A DNA stretch of 64,000 nt from a virus (lineage: Duplodnaviria > Caudoviricetes): positions 4,795 to 68,794 of IMG/VR virus record IMGVR_UViG_3300028048_003152; one strand, given 5' to 3'. The number at the start of each line of letters is the position of its first letter. Position 1 is the first letter of the stretch. A model generated the notes under the pieces. That model saw nothing but the letters and a program-made list of their open reading frames with translations. It was not told the origin of the DNA and made no database searches. The position numbers were made by a program, and so were the translations under genes. This document shows positions 1-31,304 of this stretch, piece by piece.

Positions 1-542
1 ATGAACTGCTGGCGCACAGCTACAGCAAATTATATAACATTCCATCCACAGGCCTTCGGTTCTTCACTGTCTACGGACCCGCCGGTCGTCCGGATATGTT
101 CTACTATTCCGCAACCCAGAAGCTGGTTGCCGGAAAGACCATCCAGATCTTCAACTACGGCAACTGCAAGAGAGACTTTACCTATGTGGATGACATCGTA
201 GAAGGAATCGTCCGCGTCATGCAGGGTGCCCCGGAGAAAATGAACGGCGAAGACGATCTCCCGCTGCCGCCCTACGCTGTGTACAACATCGGCGGCGGTA
301 CCCCGGAGAATCTCCTGGACTATATCTCCACGCTCCAGGAAGAGCTGGTCCGAGCCAAAGTTCTGCCAGAAGATTACGACTTCGAAGGACACCGTGAACT
401 CGTCGGCATGCAGCCCGGAGATGTGCCAATCACCTATGCCGACAGTACAGGCCTGGAAAATGACTACGGATTCACGCCGACCATCGGCATCCGGGAGGGG
501 CTCAGGAGGTTTGCTGAGTGGTATAAGGAATATTACAAATAA
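1..542 (+). CDS. NAD-dependent epimerase (UDP-glucuronate 4-epimerase-like), 5' part outside window
   Basis: Frame open from base 3 (ELLAHSYSKLYNIPSTGLRFFTVYGPAGRPDM...); 127/148 aa identical to C-terminus of 9206..10267. Confidence 0.9.
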   Translation, partial: ELLAHSYSKLYNIPSTGLRFFTVYGPAGRPDMFYYSATQKLVAGKTIQIFNYGNCKRDFTYVDDIVEGIVRVMQGAPEKMNGEDDLPLPPYAVYNIGGGTPENLLDYISTLQEELVRAKVLPEDYDFEGHRELVGMQPGDVPITYADSTGLENDYGFTPTIGIREGLRRFAEWYKEYYK

Positions 543-651
543 AACCTGTGGGTAGGAATTTATTGAATGATTCCTACCCACTTTTGTTATTCAGTCACAT
601 TGATCCTTTTCTACTGCTCTTTGTTTACAAATTGTTCATCTTATCACAAAA

Positions 652-965
652 TTCTGCATCCCCATCTATCTTAAAGACGTTCCAAGTTGGTCAGATGGGG
701 TGACTACAATATGTAGTGGCTGTAATCCGAAATACGGTTTTTAACTACTATATATGGTATTTACGGCATTTTCGGGAGTCCCGAAGGGTGAGGTTCATTT
801 TTGAGGGGACGGGGGTCTGCCCCGAAGGGAGAGGTTCATTTTTTCCGAAGGGTGATGTTCAGATTTGAAAAATAGACTCTTCCGAAGGGTGATGTTCAAA
901 ACATATAAAAAGCCCACCAGGTCGGCTTCCTCGTAATGAGTTTTCATTACTTGGAATCACTCCGG
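652..965. repeat. Non-coding cassette copy 1 (conserved head, NrdR-box-like pair, 4 iterons, hairpin)
   Basis: 652..694 matches 1831..1873 at 42/43 nt; 908..934 identical to 2126..2152; CCGAAGGG(T/A)GA(T/G)GTTCA at 781, 822, 845, 882. Confidence 0.85.
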
Positions 966-1013
966 CCATGTATTCCAGAAAATTCTTCGCGTTAATATAA
1001 CAGCTCGGATCTT

Positions 1014-1613
1014 TCACCTTTCTTCCATCTGATGCCTGCCTGTATTCAATCCGGAATCCGCCGTCTTCTCGTAGCCGTAAAGCCTGCACCAGCGTGTCAC
1101 GCCGTCTTCAAAACGCTTCCGGATCCCCCATGAGGTGTTCTCGGAAATCGACCTGCTCTCCTCCTGCGCAAAGGCCGCGAGGACGGTCAGAAGCATCTCC
1201 GAGAATGCCGTGCGCGTATCGATGTTGTTGCTCTCGAATACGATGTTGACGCCCAGATTATTGAGGTGGCGCACAAAGGTCAGGCACTCTAAGGTGTTTC
1301 TGGCAAAGCGGCTGATCGACTTTGTTAAGATGAGGTCGATCTTTCCTTCCTCGCACACCCTCATCATCGCCTGGAACTGCGGACGCTTGGCCGCGCTCGT
1401 TCCCGTGATGCCCTCATCGGCAAAAATGCCTGCCATCTCCCACTCAGGATTCGCCCCGATCAGTTCTGTGTAATGCTTGACCTGCCCCTCGAAGCTGGTC
1501 TTCTGGTCTTCCGTATCGGTGGATACCCGGCAGTAGGCAGCCACACGGAGCTTTCCGGTCTGTTCTTTATTCGTTTTCCTTATCGGTTCCAGGATAATCT
1601 TCTGAACTTCCAT
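1014..1613 (-). pseudogene. 3'-truncated large serine recombinase, duplicate of 14468..15979
   Basis: First 185 aa differ at 8 positions from 14468..15979; DNA homology ends at 1068 (=15426); RVAAYCRVST intact. Confidence 0.85.
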
Positions 1614-1654
1614 GTTGTTCTCCTTTCCGCGCCAATGCAGGTTATCCTCCGGCG

Positions 1655-1696
1655 CTGTCCTATATTCCCGTAAAAACTGGTGAATAGCAAGTCAAT
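1655..1696 (-). promoter_or_regulatory. ACTTG-N16-nnGnGA promoter-like motif
   Basis: TTGACTTGCTATTCACCAGTTTTTACGGGAATATAGG upstream of recombinase; near-identical at 16023..16064. Confidence 0.5.
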
Positions 1697-1830
1697 TGTG
1701 CGTAAAACAGGCGCTTTCCGGCCGTATAAATCGTAGAAAGATCCGGCCTGTTTCAGCCGGATATCTGGCAGGTGCAGACAAAGAAACAGCCCTCCGAGCC
1801 AACCCGGAGAGCCGTACAGCATTTTCGCAT

Positions 1831-2193
1831 TTCTGCATCCCCTTCTATCTTAAAGACGTTCCAAGTTGGTCAGTGGGGATAACCCCAATATGTTGATTTC
1901 AAGATTTGCAAACTACTATATATAGTGGTTTCGGTTGGTTCGGGGTGGTAAGTAGGGATAATGTTCATTTTTGAGATGGGGCTGATACCCCAGTAGGGAT
2001 AATGTTCATTTTTGAGAATCGCCCGGATCAGGGCGGTCAGATGGGAATTTGAAGTAGGGATAATGTTCAAAACATAGTAGGGATAATGTTCAGATTTTAT
2101 GTAGGTAGGGATAATGTTCAAAATGAAAAGCCCACCAGGTCGGCTTCCTCGTTACGATGTGATATCGTTTCTTGGAAACAAACCCGGTGGGCT
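1831..2193. repeat. Non-coding cassette copy 2 (conserved head, NrdR-box-like pair, 5 iterons, hairpin)
   Basis: (A/G)GTAGGGATAATGTTCA at 1951, 1992, 2053, 2076, 2104; AGCCCACC(2129)...GGTGGGCT(2193) stem. Confidence 0.85.
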
Positions 2194-2241
2194 GCATCTT
2201 TTTTATTCAGTTCTTCAGTGCCTCGTCATAAGGCGAAAATT

Positions 2242-2577
2242 TTATGACTTCTCTTCTACATCTTCATCAACCGGCTTCCCGGTCTTCTTGTACTTCCAGC
2301 CTTCGGAATCCATATACCGTTCCTCGCCGAGGACGTATTCATGATGGAAGTATTTCACGATGTCCAGATCCAAGGCTTCAAGCACCCGGCAGGCCACATC
2401 GAATGACGCCGTCCGGAGGTTCCGCTCCCCGCCTTCAAACTTCTGATAGTGCTGGATCAGAATCCCCGCCTTATCTGCCACCTGCTGCTGTGTGAGTCCG
2501 CAGGTTACGCGCCTCTCTTTAAGAAGACCGTCCTTCTTATCCTGTGTATGTACCACTCTGAACCCATTCATATTCAT
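2242..2577 (-). CDS. XRE-family helix-turn-helix regulator
   Basis: LKERRVTCGLTQQQVADKAGILIQHYQKFEGGER HTH signature; RBS and consensus promoter upstream. Confidence 0.85.
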   Translation of the reverse strand: MNMNGFRVVHTQDKKDGLLKERRVTCGLTQQQVADKAGILIQHYQKFEGGERNLRTASFDVACRVLEALDLDIVKYFHHEYVLGEERYMDSEGWKYKKTGKPVDEDVEEKS

Positions 2578-2592
2578 TGCGCATATCTCCTT

Positions 2593-2644
2593 TACATCCA
2601 GTTGTGTGTAGGCTCATTATACACACAGGTGGGTGTAATGTCAA
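2593..2644 (-). promoter_or_regulatory. Consensus sigmaA promoter with two 18-bp operator-like palindromes
   Basis: TTGACA (2639..2644)-17 bp-TATAAT (2616..2621); TACA..CAG.TG.GTGTA at 2593..2610 and 2620..2637. Confidence 0.8.
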
Positions 2645-2648
2645 TATG

Positions 2649-2852
2649 CTATCTAGTAGTCTTCCGTTTCGTATTTCGAAGCAGCTCCCGCGGAACAACG
2701 CGAGTCCCATCCTCGGAAGATGAGAGATTGGAGTCACCCTCCTGCCTGCTCATACGATGCCTCGCCTGATCGACCGTGTAAACGCGGGCATTGCTCTTTG
2801 CCTTGGATTCTTCCTCAGCGAGTTTTGCAACCATCTTGATCGTCTCCATCAT
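2649..2852 (-). CDS. Small protein resembling serine-recombinase helix E
   Basis: AAGGAGG RBS; VAKLAEEESKAKS resembles LATVAEEESRSKS of 4562..6409. Confidence 0.5.
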   Translation of the reverse strand: MMETIKMVAKLAEEESKAKSNARVYTVDQARHRMSRQEGDSNLSSSEDGTRVVPRELLRNTKRKTTR

Positions 2853-2911
2853 ACATCCTCCTTGAAATGTGATTTTTATGAACCAATCGGGTTCAGTTTT
2901 GATTCTCTAGT

Positions 2912-3370
2912 TTATATTCTCCACTGACCTCTCGGCGGAAACATCAGTGAATATAACCGCTCCCATCCCCTGCTCCCCAGGATGTTTTCGCCTTCAAAGT
3001 AGACAACCACAGATCGAGCTTCAATTTCCCTGGTGATCTCTAAAGCCTTATCCATGTCATGGCTGATATGGTTAATAGACCGGATCACAACCAGATCAAT
3101 ATCTCCGCAATCGTCCAGCAGTTTGTCCAGAGCCGTGTGATCTTCCCACCCCTCGTCAGAATAGACACCTTTGAGAATCCAGTTGTACCTCTTGGCTCTT
3201 TCCTGATACTCCCGCACTATCAACTGGCAGGAAGCTATCTGCTCGAAGGGCTGTGGGGAAGATCGGCGGTAGACAGCTACACGTAAGCCATCGGTAGCGA
3301 AGACTGGCGGATCGATCACCATTTCCTTGTACTTATCCCTGATCCTCTGCTTACGTTCCTCTCGCGTCAT
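2912..3370 (-). CDS. Degenerate resolvase-domain-only serine recombinase-like protein
   Basis: LRVAVYRRSS, YSDEG, DLVVIRSINHISHD, VYFEGENI align to the resolvase fold; SRF-type motif altered. Confidence 0.65.
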   Translation of the reverse strand: MTREERKQRIRDKYKEMVIDPPVFATDGLRVAVYRRSSPQPFEQIASCQLIVREYQERAKRYNWILKGVYSDEGWEDHTALDKLLDDCGDIDLVVIRSINHISHDMDKALEITREIEARSVVVYFEGENILGSRGWERLYSLMFPPRGQWRI

Positions 3371-3771
3371 TTCCTCGCCTCTTTCACTCTGCCTTCATGT
3401 ACTTCCAACGCCTGTCGCAGATCGAAGAAAACCTTGCGGCTGTCCGGAGACGGCTTCACACCCGGCACCCGGTATGTCAGTTTCTTTTTCCAGCCGCAAC
3501 TCTGAAAGACGAACCGGACCAGGTCCTTACTCTTGATGTCGTAGTGGTCACGACTCAGCTTGTCCGGGAGCCTGTTCGCGCCACCGTCATCGATTCCACA
3601 CGGCTCGATCCCAAAGACCAGATCTTCTGGGCTGAACATGAAGTGGAAGAACTCCGGATAGCCCATCGCCTTCAGTGTCGTTTTGAAGATTGTGATCCTG
3701 CCGGAATCTACGTTGAAGGATATGCCGGGAACTGAATAATCCCATACGATATAGTCATCCACTGTGGTCAC
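3367..3771 (-). CDS. Hypothetical protein, paralogue of recombinase C-terminal domain
   Basis: Translationally coupled ORF; motif similarity to 3813..4580. Confidence 0.7.
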   Translation of the reverse strand: MTTVDDYIVWDYSVPGISFNVDSGRITIFKTTLKAMGYPEFFHFMFSPEDLVFGIEPCGIDDGGANRLPDKLSRDHYDIKSKDLVRFVFQSCGWKKKLTYRVPGVKPSPDSRKVFFDLRQALEVHEGRVKEARK

Positions 3772-3812
3772 CTCCGTTCTGGGGCAGCATAGGGCGCATT
3801 ACTCCCCTGGTG

Positions 3813-4580
3813 TTACTCATCAGGCTGCTCGGGATCAGGTTGTGTGGGAACATCTGACTGTGGCCGCTGACCGGCTTCCTTCTTCTCTCGCACTCCCGTC
3901 AGCATCGCGATCTCCACAAAGCCGTCCATTTCCTTGACCTCGGTCTCCTTCTTGTACTGCTCCATCGGCACACCGAAGGTGTTAGCGATATCGTCCGAGT
4001 AATATCCTTTTCTGGTATCGACCTTAACGACCTCGCCGTTCTCGTCCACAGGTTCCTCTCCCTTCTTCGGCTTCTCGTTAAATACCTGCGGTACATTGAA
4101 GTCGAACACAAAGTAGAGCTTTCCGTCATAAGGAATCAGATATCCGAGGAACTTGTAACGGCACTTCTTGTCCCAGCCGAAATGATCGTAGAGGGAATTC
4201 GTGAAATCAGGGCAGCGCATCCTGCGACTCTTGCGCTTATCCTGCTTTGCCACGCACCAACGGAGAGCGTGCTTGTCGTTCTGGTCGCAGCCGGTCACAG
4301 AAAAAAGTCCGACTTCCTCATCAAACTGCAGCCTGACCCAGACCACGCCATCCAATTCCCTGAGACACGCGGCATTGAAGGATATGTTGCCGTCCCTGAT
4401 CGTAACGGCAGGATCGCGCGGGCTTGGGAACAGCTCTTTCCGGATCACCTTCATCCTGTCAGGATTGAACATGCCCATCAGTTCCTGCCGGCGTGCTTCT
4501 CTGGCAGAAGAATCCTGCTCCAGATCCTTATTCTCGTTGATCTCGTTCATCTGATCCTCGTTCATGCCGTCTTCTTCCAC
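3813..4580 (-). CDS. Recombinase-associated hypothetical protein
   Basis: Overlaps recombinase stop; TIRDGNISFNAACL similar to TIQNGKLRFNTACL in recombinase C-terminus. Confidence 0.75.
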   Translation of the reverse strand: MEEDGMNEDQMNEINENKDLEQDSSAREARRQELMGMFNPDRMKVIRKELFPSPRDPAVTIRDGNISFNAACLRELDGVVWVRLQFDEEVGLFSVTGCDQNDKHALRWCVAKQDKRKSRRMRCPDFTNSLYDHFGWDKKCRYKFLGYLIPYDGKLYFVFDFNVPQVFNEKPKKGEEPVDENGEVVKVDTRKGYYSDDIANTFGVPMEQYKKETEVKEMDGFVEIAMLTGVREKKEAGQRPQSDVPTQPDPEQPDE

Positions 4581-6409
4581 CCTTCCATAATTGTCTCCGC
4601 TTCCTTCATCAGGCCCGCCAGCTTGTCAGCTGTGAAGGTATTCATCTCTTCCAGTTCTGTCGCCGGGCGCAGTACATCCCAGTCGCCTGCATAATGCTGC
4701 TGCACCAGAACTGATGCACGGCCATAACTGCTGACCGGCACTCCGAATGAAGATGTCCAGGACTCAGGATATACACGCACCGTCTCCTGGATAACGATCT
4801 CTTCCGTAGCATCCTCTTCATCCGTTTCCTCTACTTCCGACTTATCCGGAACGACGACCTGCTCCACGACCTTTGTGATCACAGGCTCATCCAGTTCAAA
4901 TACCAAGAGTTTCTGATCGTCCTGGTTTATGAACTGTCCCCGGAACCGGTACTTGCCCTCGTCCTCCCAGCTCATGAGATCAAAGAGCGTCTTGGACAAC
5001 CCCCTGCATCCGAGCGTGCTGACCACCCAGCGTTCCTCCCGGAGCTTTCCCCAGTGGATGGCATTCGGATTGCTCTCATCGCATGGACGGATAGCGATGG
5101 TATTTGTGACCGTGTTCAGCAGGAGCTCCACATATTCCACATCTTCAAACTTTTTCAGGCAGGCTGTGTTAAACCGCAGCTTGCCGTTTTGTATCGTCAT
5201 CGTCAGCTGCTCCCTTGACGGAAAATAGTCTGCCCGGACCACTTTATAACCACCCATGAAAAGCTGTGGTCCCTTGGCGGTCACCTTGATCTCCGGGATC
5301 TCCACGCTCTCACATGCCGCCTGGTAGTCCTCAACGGAGAAGCCGCTCCAACTCTTGTCCATAGGAACGAAACCGGAAAGGATACCACCATCGATCACAC
5401 TGAGCACCGGCAGCGGACGACTCTTGGAAGCATACTGCCGGGAGGACTTTAGCAGATTCGCAGCATTATATACATCCCGGGTCACGATACCTTCGTGGTG
5501 ATCGCGTTGAATATACTGCTTCCGATTCTGCTTATTCTTAACTGACTTGTGCGTTTTGAAGTCAGGGGTATAGGTTTTACGCGAGCGGACATCGCCACAG
5601 TGTCGCTCATTCTCTATCACGCCATCGATGGAGCCCGGATTCCAGACTCCGTTACCAAGTTTGGTAGTCCTTCCATACTCGGTCAGTAATTCAGCGATCT
5701 CGGTCGGAGACCATCCGTTGATGTACAGGTAAAAGATTACTTTGACCGTCTCGGCTTCATCTGGGTTTATAACCAGTTCCCCATCCTCGTCCAGATCGTA
5801 TCCCAGTAATTTCGGAGTCAGGAAGATGCCCTTCGAAAATCGCCGCTCGATGGACCAGTTCATGATGAACGACTTAGACCGCGACTCCTCTTCCGCTACC
5901 GTGGCAAGGATGGTCAGGACAAGGGCACCGGTGGTATCCAGCGTGTACAGATTGTTCTCATCGAAATGTACACCCACGCCCAAGTTCTTCAGCTCATCGA
6001 TCACGGACAGACAGTCGACAACGTTCCTCGCGAATCTCGCGATTGATTTCGCAAGTATGTGTTGTATCTTACCGGCTCTGGCGTCCTCGATCATCTGGAG
6101 CATGCCCTTCCGATGTGTCAGACTCGTACCCGAGATACCCTCGTCGCTATAGATGCCGACAAACTCCCAGTTCGGATTTGCCTTGATCCGTTCGGTGAAG
6201 TCATTGACCTGCAGCTCATACGATGAGGTCTGCTCGTCGTTTTCCGTGGACACACGAACATACGCAGCGACCTTCAGTGGCCGCTGTTCCAAGGCAATCT
6301 CGTCGGTCGCAATAGCCGGTATGACTTCCAGCTCAGAAGGATCGACGCCCTTATATCTGGTTCTGATTTTCTGTTTGCTGTCACCCGCTGCTTTTTCACT
6401 GGCGATCAT
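4562..6409 (-). CDS. Large serine recombinase with extra C-terminal domain
   Basis: KVAAYVRVST, YSDEGISGT, KSIARFARN, AEEESRSKS, LLGYD motifs. Confidence 0.92.
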   Translation of the reverse strand: MIASEKAAGDSKQKIRTRYKGVDPSELEVIPAIATDEIALEQRPLKVAAYVRVSTENDEQTSSYELQVNDFTERIKANPNWEFVGIYSDEGISGTSLTHRKGMLQMIEDARAGKIQHILAKSIARFARNVVDCLSVIDELKNLGVGVHFDENNLYTLDTTGALVLTILATVAEEESRSKSFIMNWSIERRFSKGIFLTPKLLGYDLDEDGELVINPDEAETVKVIFYLYINGWSPTEIAELLTEYGRTTKLGNGVWNPGSIDGVIENERHCGDVRSRKTYTPDFKTHKSVKNKQNRKQYIQRDHHEGIVTRDVYNAANLLKSSRQYASKSRPLPVLSVIDGGILSGFVPMDKSWSGFSVEDYQAACESVEIPEIKVTAKGPQLFMGGYKVVRADYFPSREQLTMTIQNGKLRFNTACLKKFEDVEYVELLLNTVTNTIAIRPCDESNPNAIHWGKLREERWVVSTLGCRGLSKTLFDLMSWEDEGKYRFRGQFINQDDQKLLVFELDEPVITKVVEQVVVPDKSEVEETDEEDATEEIVIQETVRVYPESWTSSFGVPVSSYGRASVLVQQHYAGDWDVLRPATELEEMNTFTADKLAGLMKEAETIMEGWKKTA

Positions 6410-6427
6410 TTGTGTCTCACATCCTTT

Positions 6428-7411
6428 TTAACCTTCAAGTTCGCCTTCTTCGGGCATCATCCAGTACCACTTCCGCATTTTTCTGAATGGCTTAATACCA
6501 AGGGCAACCTTGGCATCGTTCATGGTCTTATCTCCGATCCGATATTCAGCCATCAGATTCTTGATCTCTGTGGACTCAACAGGACCATTCTCCAAAGCCC
6601 TGGTAATGAGAATAGCTGCCAGCTCATGCTTGTTCTTCGGCAGATCGGGAACCGGCTCTGAAGGAGCAGTTGGCTGTATGGATCTCTCAAAACCCAGCCA
6701 TCGGAAACCAGTCTCTGGACGAATCTCAAAAGAGAAGTCCGGGCCTTTGGGAGCCGCGCTGCTCTTAATGTGATGAACGATACGGATGTGTTCATCTTCC
6801 TTTGACCGCTCCACCTGTAGTACGCTCCTCGCGGACGCAACCAGGTCGATACTTCCAAGTCCCCGGTATAAATCCTTCTGTCCCCCGCTCTTATTCATGT
6901 GCCCGATAACCACAATCGCGCATTCATACATGGAAGCCCATATCCCTGTGCGTTTCATCAATCTCCGGGCTTTTGATGCACTCATCAAATCGGAGTCGTT
7001 TTCAACATAAGCCTGGATCGGATCGATAACCACAAGACGAGGGTTGAAAGTTATGATGGCTTCCCTCAGCCTCTCATCATCAATAGTCAGACCGCTGTAG
7101 ATCTCTTCATTGATGAAAGCGATGTTCCGGCAGTTTGCGCCGTTAGCTTCCAACCTGGGTTTGATCGTATCTCCCGCATCATCTTCCGAACACTGATAGA
7201 TGATCTTCTGTGGTACTCCGAGTGCCGTTCCGTCTGGCATTGCCCCGCCTCTTGACAGTTCCGCCACAATGTTCATCATCATGGTCGACTTTCCGTCATT
7301 GGGATCGCCCTGCAATAGAGTAACCTTCCCTATGGGGATATATGGACGCCACAGCCACTGAACCGGCTTTGACTGGATGTCACTGTAAAGCGTCAGCAGC
7401 TTTGACTCCAC
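6428..7411 (-). CDS. AAA_25/RecA-family ATPase (RepA-helicase-like)
   Basis: Walker A GDPNDGKS, Walker B LVVIDP, C-terminal wHTH-like region; GTG start after GGAGGG. Confidence 0.85.
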   Translation of the reverse strand: MESKLLTLYSDIQSKPVQWLWRPYIPIGKVTLLQGDPNDGKSTMMMNIVAELSRGGAMPDGTALGVPQKIIYQCSEDDAGDTIKPRLEANGANCRNIAFINEEIYSGLTIDDERLREAIITFNPRLVVIDPIQAYVENDSDLMSASKARRLMKRTGIWASMYECAIVVIGHMNKSGGQKDLYRGLGSIDLVASARSVLQVERSKEDEHIRIVHHIKSSAAPKGPDFSFEIRPETGFRWLGFERSIQPTAPSEPVPDLPKNKHELAAILITRALENGPVESTEIKNLMAEYRIGDKTMNDAKVALGIKPFRKMRKWYWMMPEEGELEG

Positions 7412-7500
7412 CTTCTTGACACCTTCCCTCCCGAAACTCACAGGCACAGTAAACACAAGCTTCTTTTTTCTAAGAATATTATACAGTACCAACGCCGATC

Positions 7501-7553
7501 TCAGTTTAACCCATTAGTTATAATTGAGCGCGCAACTTAAACTGTCAGTTTAA
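7501..7553. promoter_or_regulatory. Operator-like palindrome between divergent ATPase and XRE genes
   Basis: TTAAACTG-T-CAGTTTAA at 7537..7553; extra half-site TCAGTTTAA at 7501. Confidence 0.55.
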
Positions 7554-7696
7554 AAAAACGGCTCAGATCGCCATTCTCTCACCCGCAAAAGAAACCACCA
7601 TCTTAAAAAGGCAAAAAACTCCGTTGCTATGTAAAATTCCTGACGGTAATATGCTGATGCCTACTGTGGGCCATTCGGAAAGGAGCGCAAAAAGAA

Positions 7697-8038
7697 ATGG
7701 CCATAGACAGCGAAAGCATAGGACGAAACATCAAGTTTTACAGGAATCAAAAGGGTATTTCGCAAGAAGAATTGGGCAAAGCCGTATATGTCTCAAATAT
7801 CCACATCAGTTATCTCGAAGCTGGCACAAAGGTGCCAAGCCTAGAACTACTGATCTTAATCGCTAACGTACTCGACGTTTCCGCTGACGATCTCCTTGTA
7901 GATAACCTTACAAGAACCAGTTCCGTAGTTGGGAAAGAACTTCATGCCATCTTACAGGACTGTCACCCAGCTAAGAAGGAGATGCTCATCAAGACTCTGA
8001 AGTTTATGAAGGAGCTCTGGACGGAGTACAAAATCTGA
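7697..8038 (+). CDS. XRE-family repressor
   Basis: IKFYRNQKGISQEELGKAVYVSNIHISYLEAGTKVPSLELL. Confidence 0.9.
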   Translation: MAIDSESIGRNIKFYRNQKGISQEELGKAVYVSNIHISYLEAGTKVPSLELLILIANVLDVSADDLLVDNLTRTSSVVGKELHAILQDCHPAKKEMLIKTLKFMKELWTEYKI

Positions 8039-8047
8039 CAACATAAC

Positions 8048-8130
8048 AAAAAATCTGCCCGCGTAGGCGGCAGCAGCATCCTTGATTTTTTCTTGGGTGC
8101 TTCTGTCCTCTACACGGGCAGATACTTTTT
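8048..8130. terminator. Bidirectional long-stem terminator
   Basis: A-tract ATCTGCCCG...CGGGCAGAT T-tract between convergent genes. Confidence 0.65.
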
Positions 8131-8140
8131 CGTATGTACT

Positions 8141-8587
8141 TTACGCCACGGTCAACCAGCAGTCTGTGATGAATTCAGCCATTTCCACAGACATGGAGGC
8201 TACATATTCTTTGCCATCCAGTACCGGAAGCAGGTCATCCCGCATGAACTCGATTGTCCGTTCCAGCAGATTCTCTCCCGGCTGTGCCTGCCACTCCATC
8301 GCAGAGATTGTGGCTGCTGTTCTCGCGTCATCGATCAGCGCCGCAAAAGCATCCCTGTCGATCCCACTCCACTGTTCCGTTGCCAGTTTCCGCCCTTTGA
8401 CCGTCCCACCGCGAAGTCCCCTCATTTCCGGGCTGACAATCCGCTCAAGTTCCTCTGGCACAACCTCGACCTTCATGCTCTGCAGATATGCCTTGATCAT
8501 CGCAGCCACAGTCAAGTCTGTTATATTAAAGCCGTACTTATCTGCGTAAACGTCGCGCAGAATCCCTGTATTCATCTCCATGTACAA
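8141..8587 (-). CDS. Hypothetical protein
   Basis: 148-aa ORF with GGAGG RBS. Confidence 0.65.
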   Translation of the reverse strand: MYMEMNTGILRDVYADKYGFNITDLTVAAMIKAYLQSMKVEVVPEELERIVSPEMRGLRGGTVKGRKLATEQWSGIDRDAFAALIDDARTAATISAMEWQAQPGENLLERTIEFMRDDLLPVLDGKEYVASMSVEMAEFITDCWLTVA

Positions 8588-8716
8588 AACCTCCCCTGAT
8601 GTATGTCTGTCACATTACCTGGCTTCCTTGTTTCTCAAGTTACCTCGGGGTTTCGTACATTGCAAGATTCACTTGAATCCAGAAGATGGGGGTTCCCGTT
8701 AAATCAGACACTTGTA

Positions 8717-9139
8717 TCATTCACAAACCCAGCAATCAGGTCGAACTTCTTCTTTGACCAGTCTAAGCCACTTTGCAATATGCTTTTTCCCAGCCAGATA
8801 TTCCGGATCTATACATCCACAATTAATACTCTGGCCTGTCCTCTCATGTTTTCTCCATTCGTCGGCATAATAGCAAAAATCGTCTACAGCCACTTCGTCA
8901 AATCCAGTATATGCAATATTACGGCCCAGATACATTAGACACATCAGGTCATATCGCTTATGTTCAGAGAACTCATTGATAATCATTTTAATAGTTGCGT
9001 ATGGCTCGCCGGGATCTAGTTCCAGTTCCGGATCAAAACGTGAATCTCCCAAATAAATCAAATCATCGATTTCTTCCGGTGTGATCTCAAATCTGTTTAT
9101 TCTGCGTATCGCTTTTTGACGTAATTGGTATTTACCCAT
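8717..9139 (-). CDS. DUF3775-like protein
   Basis: INEFSEHKRYDLMCLMYLGR and EYLAGKKHIAKWL resemble the DUF3775 pattern; lower GC. Confidence 0.55.
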   Translation of the reverse strand: MGKYQLRQKAIRRINRFEITPEEIDDLIYLGDSRFDPELELDPGEPYATIKMIINEFSEHKRYDLMCLMYLGRNIAYTGFDEVAVDDFCYYADEWRKHERTGQSINCGCIDPEYLAGKKHIAKWLRLVKEEVRPDCWVCE

Positions 9140-9205
9140 ATACGTTCCTCCAAAACCATGGCATATCTTCCGGGAAAGTATCGTGAAAGACCTTCACATA
9201 TGCTT

Positions 9206-10267
9206 TTACTTGTAGTATTCCGCGTACCACTCAGCAAAATGTCTGAGACCTTCTCTTATCCCAATCTCAGGTCTGAAGCCATAGTCGCGCTCCAAAGCGG
9301 CGCTGTCAGCGTAGGTCACAGGGACATCGCCGGCCTGCATTCCGACCAGTTCCCGGTGTCCCTCGAAGTCATAATCGGCAGGAAGAACTCCGGCTCTGAC
9401 CAGTTCCTCCTGGAGCGTGCTGATATAGTCCAGAAGGTTCTCCGGCTGACCGCCGCCGATGTTGTACACAGCGTAAGGCGGGATCGGCAGACCGTCCTCT
9501 CCGTTCTTCTTTTCCGGCGCACCCTGCATCACGCGGTAAACACCCTCTACGATATCGTCGATATAGGTGAAGTCCCGGCGCATATCGCCGTAGTTGAAGA
9601 TCTGGATGGTCTTCCCTGCGACCAGTTTCTGTGTGGCGCTGTAGTAGAACATATCCGGACGACCAGCGGGGCCATAGACCGTGAAGAAGCGGAGCCCCGT
9701 GGACGGGATATTGTAGAGCTTGGAATAGGCGTGTGCCAAAAGCTCATCGGATTTTTTTGTGGCCGCATAGAGGCTCACAGGGTTATCCACTTTGTCATCT
9801 GTGCTGAACGGCACCTTCTTGTTTCCGCCGTAAACGGAAGAACTGGATGCATAGACCAGGTGTTCCACCGGGTTATGACGGCAGGCTTCCAGCAGATTGT
9901 AGAAGCCGATGATATTGCTCTCGATATACACATCCGGGTGGTCGATGGAATATCGGACGCCGGCCTGTGCTGCAAGGTTCACCACGATATCGAAGTGGTA
10001 GGTAGCGAACAGGTCATCGACCAGAGCCTTGTCTCCGATGGAACCGCGGATGAACACATGCTTGACTGAAGATTCCTCCGCTGCCTTCTCCACAAGGCCG
10101 AGACGGTATTCCTTCAGAGCCGGATCGTAGTAGTCATTCATATTGTCAAGGCTTACAACTGTGCCGCCGCTCATTTCTTTCAGCAGACGGATCACGAGGT
10201 TGGCCCCGATGAATCCAGGTGAACCGGTCACCAGGATGGTTTTGTTGTCCAAATCTATGTGCTGCAT
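9206..10267 (-). CDS. NAD-dependent epimerase (UDP-glucuronate 4-epimerase-like)
   Basis: GSPGFIG Rossmann motif, NLAAQAGVRYS, YAATK catalytic motif. Confidence 0.93.
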   Translation of the reverse strand: MQHIDLDNKTILVTGSPGFIGANLVIRLLKEMSGGTVVSLDNMNDYYDPALKEYRLGLVEKAAEESSVKHVFIRGSIGDKALVDDLFATYHFDIVVNLAAQAGVRYSIDHPDVYIESNIIGFYNLLEACRHNPVEHLVYASSSSVYGGNKKVPFSTDDKVDNPVSLYAATKKSDELLAHAYSKLYNIPSTGLRFFTVYGPAGRPDMFYYSATQKLVAGKTIQIFNYGDMRRDFTYIDDIVEGVYRVMQGAPEKKNGEDGLPIPPYAVYNIGGGQPENLLDYISTLQEELVRAGVLPADYDFEGHRELVGMQAGDVPVTYADSAALERDYGFRPEIGIREGLRHFAEWYAEYYK

Positions 10268-14471: not shown

Positions 14472-15979
14472 GCCGTCTCAACCTCCTCCGTCTCTTTTTC
14501 TGCTTCCTTCTGGCGCTCAAGGTAACTGTTGTACAGGCCCGCGATCATAGGCGGATGCTCCCGGTCGGCATCCACACCGGACATGACCGTGGTGATCAGG
14601 CCGCATTTCCAGAACACCTTCATGGTGCGGTCATCGGTGACGTTCTCGCCAAGGGCCGCAAGCCTGCGGTACTCCCTCTCCGTCCTGCTGTGCGCACCGA
14701 ATTCAATGTGGTCGATCAGGTCATCCACCCACCAGAAGTCCACACGCTTCATGACCGGGTATTCCTTCTTAACCTCCAGCGCCAGCTTTGCGGCATCACC
14801 AAACCGCGGGCTTTTTACCTTCTCCGCGATCTTGTTCGCGTCCAGCTTCTTATAGGCTTCCAGAAGCGCCGGTTCCACCAGATAGGACCGGATAATGAAA
14901 CCGTGGCATGCGTCCTCGCCCTGTTCACAGCACCAGCCGGCGCTGTGCTTTACCTGGACCGGCATGGCTCTCTGGTAAAGGACGGAACCGCAGTAAGGGC
15001 AGCGGAGCTTGTCGCCGAGCGGGTACTGATTGCAGGGTCCGGTGTCATGTTCCTTCCTGTGACCGTTCACCCTGCGCATCCCCATGATCTTCATGCAGCG
15101 GTCATACTGCTTTCTCGGTACAATGGGGAGATGGTGGTTCTCGATGTAGAAGCTCGGGACCTCGGTGCTATCGTTCCTGATAGACTTATGGCTCAAATGG
15201 TCTTCCGTCAGGAACTTCTGGAGAATGATGTCTCCGGTATAGCGTTCATTGATCAGCAGGGTGTGGATCGCGGAATTCGTCCATTTCGGCTCCCCGGTCG
15301 GGCTTTTGATGCCATGTGCCGTCAGGTACTTGCGGATGTTCTGGATGCTCTCGCCGTGCTCGTAGAGATCGTAGATCTTCTGCACCACCGCCGCCTGTTC
15401 CGGTACGATCTGGTATTCCCCGTTTGCCGTCTTCTCATAGCCGTAAAGCCTGCTCCATCTGGTAACGCCGTCTTCAAACCGCTTCCGTATTCCCCAGGAG
15501 GTGTTTTCGGAAATCGACCTGCTCTCCTCCTGCGCAAAGGCCGCAAGGACAGTCAGAAGCATCTCCGAAAATGCCGTGCGCGTATCGATGTTGTTGCTCT
15601 CAAACACGATGTGGACACCCAGGTTGTTGAGGTGTCTCACAAAAGTCAGGCACTCTAAGGTGTTTCTGGCAAAGCGACTGATCGACTTTGTTAAGATGAG
15701 GTCGATCTTTCCTTCCTCACACACCCTCATCATCGCCTGGAACTGCGGCCGTTTGGCTGCGCTCGTTCCCGTGATGCCCTCGTCGGCGAAGATGCCTGCC
15801 ATTTCCCATTCCGGATTACCTTCGATCAGTTCCGTATAGTGCTTGACCTGTCCCTCGAAGCTGGTCCTCTGGTCTTCTGTATCGGTGGAAACCCGGCAGT
15901 AGGCAGCCACACGGAGCTTGCCGGTCTGTTCCCTGACCGTTTTTCTGATCGGTTCAAGTTTGATCTTCTGAACTTCCAT
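14468..15979 (-). CDS. Large serine recombinase (cassette gene B)
   Basis: RVAAYCRVST, KSISRFARN, CPYCG zinc ribbon. Confidence 0.93.
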   Translation of the reverse strand: MEVQKIKLEPIRKTVREQTGKLRVAAYCRVSTDTEDQRTSFEGQVKHYTELIEGNPEWEMAGIFADEGITGTSAAKRPQFQAMMRVCEEGKIDLILTKSISRFARNTLECLTFVRHLNNLGVHIVFESNNIDTRTAFSEMLLTVLAAFAQEESRSISENTSWGIRKRFEDGVTRWSRLYGYEKTANGEYQIVPEQAAVVQKIYDLYEHGESIQNIRKYLTAHGIKSPTGEPKWTNSAIHTLLINERYTGDIILQKFLTEDHLSHKSIRNDSTEVPSFYIENHHLPIVPRKQYDRCMKIMGMRRVNGHRKEHDTGPCNQYPLGDKLRCPYCGSVLYQRAMPVQVKHSAGWCCEQGEDACHGFIIRSYLVEPALLEAYKKLDANKIAEKVKSPRFGDAAKLALEVKKEYPVMKRVDFWWVDDLIDHIEFGAHSRTEREYRRLAALGENVTDDRTMKVFWKCGLITTVMSGVDADREHPPMIAGLYNSYLERQKEAEKETEEVETA

Positions 15980-16192
15980 ATGCTGTTCTCCTTTCTGCGC
16001 CGCTGTAAGTTATCCCCCGGCGCTGTCCTATATTCCCGTAAAAGCTCGTGCATAGCAAGTCAATTGTGCGTAAAACAGACGCTTTCGGGCCGTATAAATC
16101 GTAGAATAATCCGGCCTGTTTCAATCGGATATCTGGTAGGTGTAGACAAAGAAAGGCCCCCTGAGCGCTTATCTCAGAGAGCCTGATGAACT

Positions 16193-29678: not shown

Positions 29679-31304
29679 TCAAAAGACCCAGAGCGGATGA
29701 TCCGGGTCGTCATATACACTGCCCTGCTGTTCACGGCGGATCGCCCGATCCAGTCCCATGATCCAGGCAACGATGCCGTCAATCTTCTCCGTAGACTTCT
29801 TCTTGCTGGGCTTGATGTTCTCCGCAGCATCAATCTCTGCTACCACGTTTCCCGCCATCCATCTGAGGACCGGATTGCCACCATGGATGATCTTGCCTTC
29901 CAGTAGCAACTTGTATAGTTCCTTCATGCCGGGACTCATATCTTTGAAGCCCATGCCGATTGGAACCATCGTAAAACCGTCTCCCTCAAGGTCGGTGATC
30001 AGCTGCGTCGCGTTCCAGCGGTCCACCCCTATCTCCTTGATATTGAAAACGGTATGCAGGTCGTTGATAGTCTTGCGGACAAAGTTATAATCGACCACGT
30101 TGCCCTCAGTCACATGAAACAGTCCCTGCTTCTCCCAAACATCATAGGGAACATGATCCCTCCGAACTCTCAGCTGCAGAGTTTCTCTCGGCAGCCAGAA
30201 GTGCGGCACCACGATGTATTTCTCCGTTTCATTTCTCGGAGGGAATACCATCACAAAGGCAGTGATGTCGCTTGTACTGGAAAGGTCCAGTCCGCAGTAG
30301 CACTCCCTGCCTTTCAGGGCATCGAGGTCAATCGGGATATTCCCTTTGTCGTAGATGTGTTCCGGTATCCAGGCGACTGCACTTCCGACCCACTGGTCGA
30401 GCCGGAGCTGGCGGAAGACGTTCTCTTCTGCCGGATTGGTCAGTGCCTCTCTGTGGGCATCGCGCACACGGTCGATCTGGATGGTATATCCCAGGGAGGG
30501 ATTTGCCTTGTACCAGGCTTTCTCACTATTCCAGTCCTCTCCGTCCTCCAGACCGTAAATGACCGGATAGAAGGACGGATCAATGCGCTTGCCCTCCAGG
30601 ATGTCCTTTGCCTTGGTATGGTACTCATAACAGATGCTGTTGCGGTCAGTACCAGCCGTGGTGATCAGAAAGTAAAGCGGCTGTGTTCTGGCATCGCCGG
30701 AGCCCTTAGTCAGCACGTCCACAAGGCTGCGGTTGGGCTGCGCGTGAAGCTCATCCAGCACAAGCCCGGATACGTTTAGGCCGTGTTTTGTCCCGACCTC
30801 AGCCGAAAGCACCTGGTAGAAACCGACGTTGGAGTAGTTCACCAGTCGCTTTGTCGCCGCCATGATCTTGGAGCGTTTCAGAAGCGCCGGGGTCATCTCC
30901 ACCATCCGTTTTGCCACATCGAACACGATGGAAGCCTGCTGCCGGTCCGCAGCCGCGCCGTAGACCTCTGCAGACGGTTCTCCGTCAGCGTACAAAAGAT
31001 ACAGCGCCACCGCAGCGGCAAGCTCGCTCTTTCCGTTCTTCTTGGGGATCTCCACATAGGCCGTGCGGAACTGCCGGGTGCCGTCCTCCTTCACGATCCC
31101 GAACACATCCCGTATGATCTGTTCCTGCCAGGGAAGCAGCCAGAACGGTTTCCCGCTCCACCTGCCCTTGGTGTGGCAAAGGTTTTCGATAAATCGGACC
31201 GCCCGGTCTGCTTTGCCCTCGTCATAGTGGGATTCCGGGAGCATGAACCGGGATGGCTTGTAGTCCTTCAGTTTCGGGTAGTTCTTCGGTCTCTCCTTCG
31301 CCAT
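29679..31304 (-). CDS. terL: Terminase large subunit
   Basis: EIPKKNGKSE Walker A, LDELH, GLDLS, EKIDG. Confidence 0.95.
   Translation of the reverse strand: MAKERPKNYPKLKDYKPSRFMLPESHYDEGKADRAVRFIENLCHTKGRWSGKPFWLLPWQEQIIRDVFGIVKEDGTRQFRTAYVEIPKKNGKSELAAAVALYLLYADGEPSAEVYGAAADRQQASIVFDVAKRMVEMTPALLKRSKIMAATKRLVNYSNVGFYQVLSAEVGTKHGLNVSGLVLDELHAQPNRSLVDVLTKGSGDARTQPLYFLITTAGTDRNSICYEYHTKAKDILEGKRIDPSFYPVIYGLEDGEDWNSEKAWYKANPSLGYTIQIDRVRDAHREALTNPAEENVFRQLRLDQWVGSAVAWIPEHIYDKGNIPIDLDALKGRECYCGLDLSSTSDITAFVMVFPPRNETEKYIVVPHFWLPRETLQLRVRRDHVPYDVWEKQGLFHVTEGNVVDYNFVRKTINDLHTVFNIKEIGVDRWNATQLITDLEGDGFTMVPIGMGFKDMSPGMKELYKLLLEGKIIHGGNPVLRWMAGNVVAEIDAAENIKPSKKKSTEKIDGIVAWIMGLDRAIRREQQGSVYDDPDHPLWVF

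Follow-up and report, generated by a model that had tools for sequence, protein, structure and literature searches.

In the res sites of serine resolvases (resH of Sin, res of Tn3/gamma-delta and six of the beta recombinase), further copies of the sequence bound by the recombinase lie beyond the crossover site, on one side only. The accessory copies of Sin are direct repeats, and a site for the bending protein HU/IHF lies between its crossover site and accessory site. Large serine recombinases (LSRs) are valued for genome engineering because their sites are short and require no accessory DNA or host factors. Here we analysed bases 4795-68794 of an IMG/VR provirus record, a stretch of 64 kb that is called the window throughout, and found in it two copies of a non-coding cassette belonging to an element that encodes an LSR. 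Both copies lie at the conserved end of a small mobile element that occurs in Clostridia of the rumen and gut. Considering their layout, we suggest that the cassette may be the accessory, or arm, region of an atypical LSR site, with boxes for the regulator NrdR lying between its core and an array of repeat units.

An earlier note on this DNA had described two homologous cassettes, each with a common head, an array of direct repeats and a common tail, and these descriptions were reproduced. Through sequence reading and a repeat finder, the heads (652-694 versus 1831-1873) matched at 42 of 43 positions. The tails (908-934 and 2126-2152) were identical over 27 nt, the repeat finder returned four direct units in cassette 1 and five in cassette 2, and the short flanks TTTTTGAG, AAAACAT and AGATTT were found in both. 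Cassette 1 occupies 641-965 of the window and cassette 2 occupies 1831-2205. Their homology starts at 641 (TTATCACAAAA), about 11 nt to the left of the previously noted position 652, and the head homology extends to 63 nt at 89%. Cassette 1 ends inside its tail hairpin at about 965, where it adjoins a 199-aa serine recombinase stump. Allowing up to 3 mismatches, the cassette 2 unit matched 6 times in the window (0.40 expected) and the cassette 1 unit 4 times (0.22 expected), and neither number was reached by any of 100 shuffles. Unit matches within the 64 kb were confined to their own cassettes, except one weak site at 30148. The parts of the two cassettes are as follows, in window coordinates.

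641 to 679, plus strand: left (type A) arm of cassette 1, a conserved 40-nt island TTATYACAAAA...CTTAAAGACG, with unrelated DNA beyond it in every locus
680 to 703, plus strand: junction TTCCAAG (680-686) and right arm of cassette 1, with proximal motif GGGGTGA (697-703)
704 to 719 and 745 to 760, plus strand: NrdR-box-like palindromes of cassette 1, 12/16 each, 25-bp spacer
781 to 898, plus strand: four cassette 1 units, CCGAAGGG(T/A)GA(G/T)GTTCA, starting at 781, 822, 845 and 882
908 to 965, no strand assigned: tail hairpin of cassette 1, cut at about 965 by a deletion that also removed part of the neighbouring recombinase gene
1831 to 1858, plus strand: left (type A) arm of cassette 2, its outer end shortened
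1859 to 1883, plus strand: junction TTCCAAG (1859-1865) and right arm of cassette 2, with proximal motif GGGGATAAC (1875-1883)
1883 to 1898 (11/16) and 1913 to 1928 (13/16), plus strand: NrdR-box-like palindromes of cassette 2, 14-bp spacer
1952 to 2120, plus strand: five identical cassette 2 units, GTAGGGATAATGTTCA, starting at 1952, 1993, 2054, 2077 and 2105
2128 to 2205, minus strand: long three-tier hairpin of cassette 2, terminator of the convergent operon

We found the cassette anatomy again in about 13 related sequences of Clostridia from ruminants and the gut, and the order of parts in them was constant: junction, proximal motif, two AT-rich palindromes, units, long hairpin and the 3' end of a convergent gene. 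The same element lies in the same polysaccharide locus of two ruminant metagenome-assembled genomes (MAGs), with DNA 80-89% identical (L113, which is G001:C28, and L112, which is G002:C14), and a third cassette type was found in another polysaccharide locus of G001 (L110/L111). L112 has a second, truncated cassette with two units (AGAAGGGATAATGTTCA), fused on its left to the interior of a recombinase gene and on its right to what is left of a second element; the ATPase of that second element is only 55% identical to the ATPase of the window. A search with a unit-pair pattern gave the true cassettes L321, L351, L359, L364, L371, L387, L400 and L416; using the element protein o134 as the query extended the set by the viral contigs L421 and L422 and by G626, a more distant relative. 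Searches with exact 30-mers and 20-mers of the head hit the two MAGs only and no viral or metagenome contig, and a DNA search of 401 host-family genomes hit G001 only. The unit-pair pattern is passed by any tandem array that holds the 12-mer once; most of its matches were unrelated tandem repeats, often in coding sequence, and were rejected as a sign of deep conservation. Elsewhere in the host genomes, ACWATATATWGT, a 12-mer, falls within coding sequence and was set aside.

The right arm of the head is constant across loci: TTCCAAG, then TTGGTCAG, then GGGGATAAC. Left of TTCCAAG, the sequence takes two forms, and the switch falls at TTCCAAG. Type A is the 40-nt island (TTATTACAAAAATCTGCATCCCCATCTATCTTAAAGACG), present in cassettes 1 and 2, L112a, L112b, L113, L111 and L400. 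The DNA before it differs from locus to locus, being the terminator of an epimerase gene, a recombinase promoter region, the interior of a recombinase gene, a lysin gene fragment or a 260-bp non-coding stretch. Type B, present in L321, L387, L359, L364 and L421, is coding sequence of the opposite strand and reads WK(I/V)ITxGxxGGM; the 42-aa flank of L421 matched positions 174-213 of the Pfam family DegT_DnrJ_EryC1, the pyridoxal phosphate (PLP)-lysine region (20.0 bits; cut-off 19.8). The type B locus L364 and the type A locus L113 each align to cassette 2 at about 89-90% over about 360-390 bp. Since the left side of TTCCAAG alternates between the 40-nt arm and the DegT coding region, the head is, by this comparison of loci, an attachment site, that is, a recombination junction.

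Type B is probably the integrated junction in a DegT-type aminotransferase gene, and type A is probably either the junction of two accreted elements or an unrecombined site. This reading would account for the position of the cassettes in polysaccharide loci and also for the tandem arrangement of the two heads of the window. Cassette 1 we read as the stump of a second, mostly deleted copy of the element. No empty DegT target site and no circular junction were recovered in this analysis. Like the sites of the large serine integrases phiC31, Bxb1, A118, SprA of SPbeta and TnpX, the cassette has a conserved element arm joined to its target at a fixed point, and in both cases tandem or accreted elements leave repeated arms; as for SPbeta in spsM, the target lies inside conserved coding sequence. 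However, known LSR sites are about 40-50 bp without accessory DNA, whereas here a region of about 350 bp is conserved and includes an operator and a repeat array.

The integrated form would interrupt a sugar aminotransferase gene of the DegT/DnrJ/EryC1 type at its PLP-lysine codons (L421 6835-6960; L359 about 120-190; flanks of L321, L364 and L387). At the right end of the element (window 8670-8715, near 8690) we found a weak inverted att-like sequence, CTTGAA, 9 nt and TGGGGG. In the window, a 520-bp insert comes next, which contains a 140-aa open reading frame (ORF; 8717-9139, minus strand) and is missing from L112 and L113. An inverted partial copy of the right arm with an NrdR-like box (GGGGTTATCCCC beside ACTATATATAG) lies at 11718-11800 of L113, upstream of a fragment of a UDP-glucose dehydrogenase gene fused to a helix-turn-helix (HTH) domain.

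Beyond the junction, the motif of the right arm returns in the array. At 10-12 bp to the right of TTCCAAG the proximal motif begins, which is GGGGATAAC or, in cassette 1, GGGGTGAC; two NrdR boxes follow it directly, and the array starts about 20-25 bp beyond the boxes. From the proximal motif to the first unit there are 80-90 bp in all five cassettes measured (cassette 2, L113, L112a, L112b and L321). A unit is a copy of the arm motif extended by TGTTCA, and the string CAGT(A/G)GGGATAA is common to the units and the proximal arm motif. The units change together with the proximal arm motif in three lineages. The cassette 2 family has CAGTGGGGATAAC at the arm and CAGTAGGGATAAT in the units; cassette 1 has GGGGTGAC at the arm and AGGGTGAT in the units; and G626 has a different 16-mer at the arm, GAACGTCAGAAAACCA, which an unbiased repeat search found again, in the form GAAAGTCAGAAAATCA, at a distance of 85 bp and beyond the NrdR pair.

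Among seven cassettes of the cassette 2 type that are about 83-90% identical overall, nearly every position of the units is invariant, while the spacers of the same seven have substitutions and indels, and small hairpins in them are not maintained by compensatory change. As the units stay invariant while the spacers diverge, selection acts on the unit sequence itself, as expected of binding sites, and no RNA structure is kept between the units. The view of the units as predicted protein-binding sites agrees with that of the earlier note. The further claim of that note, that each cassette holds its own homogenised variant, applies within the window but does not extend to the relatives. These carry 2-6 units with the common core GGG(A)TRATGTTCA, outside which only a few 5' bases and ATAA versus TGA vary, and L111 and L421 mix variants. 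Differences between cassettes are small, one to four bases around the common core.

Several by-eye motifs were tried on the cassette and dropped: a LexA (Cheo) box, a DnaA box and a CsrA-type GGA motif gave half-sites or 7/9 positions only. Mini-ORFs starting from the unit ATG were dropped as well, the ATG being missing in two cassette 1 units, and so were -35/-10 elements within the units. At 18 or more loci in one Eggerthellaceae MAG (L268, L269, L275, L277, L278, L292, L294-L298, L308, L311-L313, L316, L317 and L319) there is a palindromic repeat, TGAACRTYACCCCWGGGGTRAYGTTCA, often paired, that was also hit by the unit-pair pattern and looks like a repetitive extragenic palindromic element or a miniature inverted-repeat transposable element; its resemblance to the unit is probably chance.

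The arrangement resembles the res sites in having one-sided motif copies beyond the crossover with a host-factor site between them, and here too binding by the recombinase may be expected. It differs from them in its enzyme, which is a 615-aa LSR with a novel C-terminal domain instead of a resolvase of about 200 aa with an HTH, and in its DNA, which has up to five distal copies over 170 bp and an NrdR operator as the intervening host-factor site. The reaction would also be integration and excision, not only resolution, because one partner site lies in a chromosomal DegT-type aminotransferase gene.

Of the non-coding features of the cassette, the tandem NrdR boxes are conserved most widely, and the earlier note made no use of them. 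Box pairs were found in 11 cassettes, each box matching 11-15 of the 16 positions of the consensus ACACWATATATWGTGT. The spacer is 25 bp in cassette 1, 14 bp in cassette 2, L113, L364, L371, L387 and L359, 15 bp in L400 and L421, and 16 bp in L112b and G626. The box cores CTATATATAG and ACAATATGT are identical to those of the host nrdD boxes: in the two related host genomes, G001 and G002, boxes nearly identical to those of the cassettes lie at the nrdD promoter, spaced by 14 and 16 bp, and an NrdR gene is present in each genome (TIGR00244 above cut-off). NrdR proteins from three phyla bind pairs with spacers of 14-17 or 24-27 bp and bind far worse otherwise, the bound DNA is sharply kinked at each box, and NrdR boxes usually overlap promoters (PMC12051234). 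The AT-rich palindromes of the cassette thus match the NrdR operator rules and constitute a predicted NrdR binding site.

For the background, 2.2 Mb (unrelated fetched DNA plus the window) held 8 pairs at the same score. Cassettes account for four of these, two others overlap each other at a single site and one is a genuine-looking operator, so that about two unrelated sites remain. G626 retains the pair, despite an o134 that is only 52% identical and a different flanking target gene, whose translation resembles, by eye, an FGGY-type sugar kinase. A pair near the 26%-identical o134-like genes of L427 and L428 lies inside coding sequence and was dropped. As in the operators of ribonucleotide reductase (RNR) promoters, there are two 16-bp palindromes with valid spacers, near-identical to the host nrdD boxes. 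Unlike those operators, they stand inside a mobile-element end, beside a recombination junction, and not upstream of an RNR gene. No RNR gene adjoins the cassette boxes, and no coding gene was found on either strand before the terminator or the junction. The whole also recalls lambda attP with its IHF, Xis and Fis sites, which has a core, a bending host-protein site and reiterated arm sites on the same side, and small accessory proteins encoded beside the integrase. Lambda, however, uses a tyrosine and not a serine recombinase, and binding of the repeats by an extra domain is here a prediction only.

The element extends over about 1831-8700 and contains, besides cassette 2 and in this order, an XRE gene, a 67-aa ORF, a degenerate resolvase fragment, o134, o255, the recombinase gene LSR615, an AAA_25 ATPase gene, a divergent second XRE gene and a 148-aa ORF, so that the assignment of the cassette to LSR-type elements in the earlier note proved right. 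The genes that bear on the cassette are listed below.

1014 to 1613, minus strand: LSR remnant of 199 aa, catalytic domain only, which with its upstream region has 89% DNA identity to 15426-16166
2242 to 2577, minus strand: XRE-type regulator, the last operon gene in the window, missing at this position in L416 and L421
3367 to 3771, minus strand: o134, 134 aa, a fold without clear relative, found beside the cassette in the loci that reach the operon
3813 to 4580, minus strand: o255, 255 aa, matching recombinase residues 382-511, a stretch that also matches o134
4562 to 6409, minus strand: LSR615, a 615-aa LSR with no zinc-ribbon match
6428 to 7492, minus strand: AAA_25 (RepA/RecA-like) ATPase with a C-terminal domain of about 80 aa, the candidate binder if the cassette is a replication origin

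LSR615 has the Resolvase and Recombinase domains, with no match to Zn_ribbon_recom and no Cys4 motif in its sequence. With hhalign, the stretch 398-509 of its sequence aligned to the o134 family (E 9.4e-5, probability 59%), of which roughly 139 clusters were found; the neighbouring 503-aa recombinase is without an o134-type domain. In known LSRs directionality is set by a zinc-ribbon/coiled-coil module, and the recombinase here is without that module. The model of o134 is confident (predicted local distance difference test score 89.7), and comparison of its structure gave no clear match: the best Foldseek E was 0.08, the best VIA-align Z was 3.0, and the ESM Atlas returned unnamed clusters only. 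Together, o134 and o255 accompany the cassette in the nine cassette-bearing loci that reach the operon, including L416 and L421, which are without the XRE gene. Among the 98 loci of XRE relatives (38 scanned for repeated 11-mers, all by blastn), only the two known loci carry the cassette, and therefore XRE is not a constant partner. The XRE gene has a promoter of perfect consensus (TTGACA, 17 nt, TATAAT; minus strand 2644-2616, within window 2590-2650), which overlaps an inverted repeat, TGTGTGTA...TACACACA; this is likely an autoregulatory operator, distinct from the units.

The anatomy of the cassette and its conservation, the junction, the identity and co-variation of the motifs and the match to the NrdR operator rules can all be read from the sequences, and on them we base the proposal of an arm region, to which we would give slightly less than an even chance. 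Under this proposal the element would be moved by LSR615, in which the zinc ribbon would be replaced by a C-terminal domain that also occurs free-standing as o134 and o255. Strand exchange would take place at or beside TTCCAAG, and the C-terminal domain of the recombinase, its free paralogues, or both, would occupy the units as well as the proximal motif. Between the two would sit NrdR, a protein that must be loaded with dATP plus ATP to bind box pairs and that sharply kinks the DNA. Its bend may fold the array back onto the crossover site, or it may gate the firing of a promoter through the array, and recombination would thereby be tied to the nucleotide state of the cell. A mixed model, in which NrdR gates transcription through a protein-binding array, is possible. 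The most ambitious version would combine a new DNA-binding domain in an LSR, reiterated arm sites and NrdR as a nucleotide-sensing architectural cofactor, with the dATP/ATP state switching the integration and excision that split the DegT gene; taken as a whole, we think it improbable.

Several points weigh against an arm region. DNA binding by the domain shared between LSR615 and o134 is an assumption, because the fold of o134 has no clear match. The best-conserved part of the unit, as judged from L421, is the 3' TGTTCA, which is missing from the proximal arm motif. The co-variation concerns three lineages, and repeat homogenisation could yield the same pattern whatever the binder. Well-studied LSRs need no accessory sites. 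Finally, a candidate promoter in NrdR box 2 faces the units, which fits an RNA product too.

The earlier note had left the choice between a replication origin and a recombination or segregation site. The recombination site fits better, as the head is a junction and the units repeat and co-vary with the arm motif, and the origin appears less likely. If the cassette were an origin, the units would be iterons for the C-terminal domain of the AAA_25 ATPase, the AT-rich palindromes would be the unwinding region, and the excised element would replicate in the manner of P4- or SaPI-type satellites, whose replication starts at sites that their helicase binds. Four to six direct repeats of 13-16 bp do lie beside an AT-rich stretch, and the cassette is the sole repeat-bearing non-coding stretch of the element. 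The ATPase has PHROG matches to primase/helicase proteins and a separate C-terminal region of about 80 aa. This region is visibly similar, by eye, between the window and L112 copies, which are 55% identical overall, and the similarity parallels the common unit core. The cassette shares with the P4 alpha ori/crr and SaPI Rep ori systems the irregular short direct repeats and, in the same small element, a helicase-like protein with an extra C-terminal domain. The P4 alpha protein binds TGTTCACC iterons, although our literature search gave no confirmation of this.

In those systems, however, the origin is beside the helicase gene, whereas here 4.2 kb and the recombinase, o255, o134 and XRE genes separate the cassette from the ATPase gene, and the repeats are identical with the junction-arm motif. 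Neither a primase nor a polymerase was found among the genes of the element. The spacing of the units is irregular (23, 28, 37, 41 and 61 bp), and the AT-rich palindromes agree with NrdR boxes both in sequence and in spacing, which speaks against a generic unwinding region. The motif repeated in G626 is again that of the junction arm, with one distal copy only, which better suits a recombination site. We therefore consider an origin unlikely. The RepA-like ATPase that had been named as the candidate partner of the repeats showed no specific link to them: its gene lies behind that of the recombinase, and its C-terminal similarity is non-discriminating, though it may yet be the binder.

A non-coding RNA under NrdR control seems to us equally doubtful. 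In this case a plus-strand transcript would start at a promoter overlapping the NrdR boxes and run through the units when deoxynucleoside triphosphate pools fall, and the 16-nt motif would act in the RNA. The motif might serve as a sponge that captures an RNA-binding protein encoded by the element, or the transcript might oppose the recombinase operon through convergent transcription. The boxes of NrdR are normally at promoters, and a -10-like hexamer, TATAGT, lies inside box 2 of cassette 2, facing the units. With a weak -35 in the inter-box spacer, it forms a plus-strand candidate promoter in cassette 2, L113, L112b and L387, that is, in four of ten cassettes. The match is weak or absent in L112a, L321, L400, L359 and L421. 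All units have one orientation, which would suit a transcript. Against it, the junction arm, on the upstream side of the boxes, contains the motif as well, and no complement of the unit that could serve as a target was found elsewhere in the window. No sequence of the window reached the gathering score of an Rfam 15 family, and matches within 500-2400 were at chance level only (E up to 10).

The tail hairpin bears on the same question. It folds far better from the minus strand (z -4.98) than from the plus strand (z -1.52), the A-C mismatches of its plus strand being G-U pairs on the minus strand, and its apical stem varies by compensatory substitutions. In every relative, the hairpin is followed by a T-run on the minus strand. 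Cassette 2 has one on the plus strand as well, which would favour a plus-strand transcript, but neither the plus-strand T-run nor a plus-strand terminator is conserved in the main family. The hairpin is kept even though the last gene of the operon differs, being XRE in the window, another small gene in L416 and o134 in L421. Considering the better minus-strand fold and the conserved minus-strand T-run, the hairpin is the terminator of the convergent operon, and the tail of the earlier description is mainly this terminator. In G626 the stretch after the boxes ends in a plus-strand terminator of its own, back-to-back with the operon terminator, which would suit a transcript. The plus strand of cassette 2 and the head region fold no better than shuffles. 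Because of these shuffle-like folds, and because the hairpins between units show no compensatory changes, a structured RNA is not supported.

That the cassette has no function of its own, its repeats having arisen by slippage or by duplication of the junction arm and being carried in a decaying end region, is very improbable: many copies are truncated or lie in rearranged or deleted contexts (cassette 1, L112b, L111 and L400) and the units of L421 are degenerate, but the units are invariant in seven cassettes with diverged spacers, the order and distances of the parts are conserved, and the architecture recurs with a different motif in G626.

The element is flanked by epimerase and UDP-glucose dehydrogenase genes, and from about 13.2 kb the window holds a prophage of roughly 50 kb with three more serine recombinase genes. 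Copies of the epimerase gene flank the element on both sides. In the window (1-544 and 9204-9747) they are inverted and 77% identical, and in L113 (3877-4692 and 11956-12771) they are direct and 86% identical; from this difference in orientation, the segment has apparently been inverted or rearranged in one lineage. In L111 (8300-8800 and 10268-10720; G001:C9) we found a small insert that holds a degenerate cassette together with a 113-aa ORF and genes for a DUF4314 protein and a YafQ toxin. The insert is bounded by 250-bp direct repeats (75% identical) that are rich in CTGTCTTAAAGA motifs in both orientations; the sequence TCTTAAAGA is also within the type A arm.

To our knowledge, and in the papers that we retrieved, NrdR has been described almost only as a repressor of ribonucleotide reductase genes. 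In the limited literature collection that we searched, neither NrdR boxes in the end of a mobile element nor an LSR site with reiterated arm motifs were described. If the cassette is indeed an arm region, there would be a natural LSR family with a structured arm of about 350 bp, repeats and a host-factor operator, and with another control of directionality. NrdR boxes in the end of a mobile element would extend the NrdR regulon, and would link the behaviour of the element to nucleotide pools, a signal that is altered by phage infection and replication stress. Insertion of the element would split a polysaccharide biosynthesis gene, and we might speculate that insertion and excision at the PLP-lysine region of the DegT gene could switch surface-polysaccharide synthesis in rumen Clostridia.

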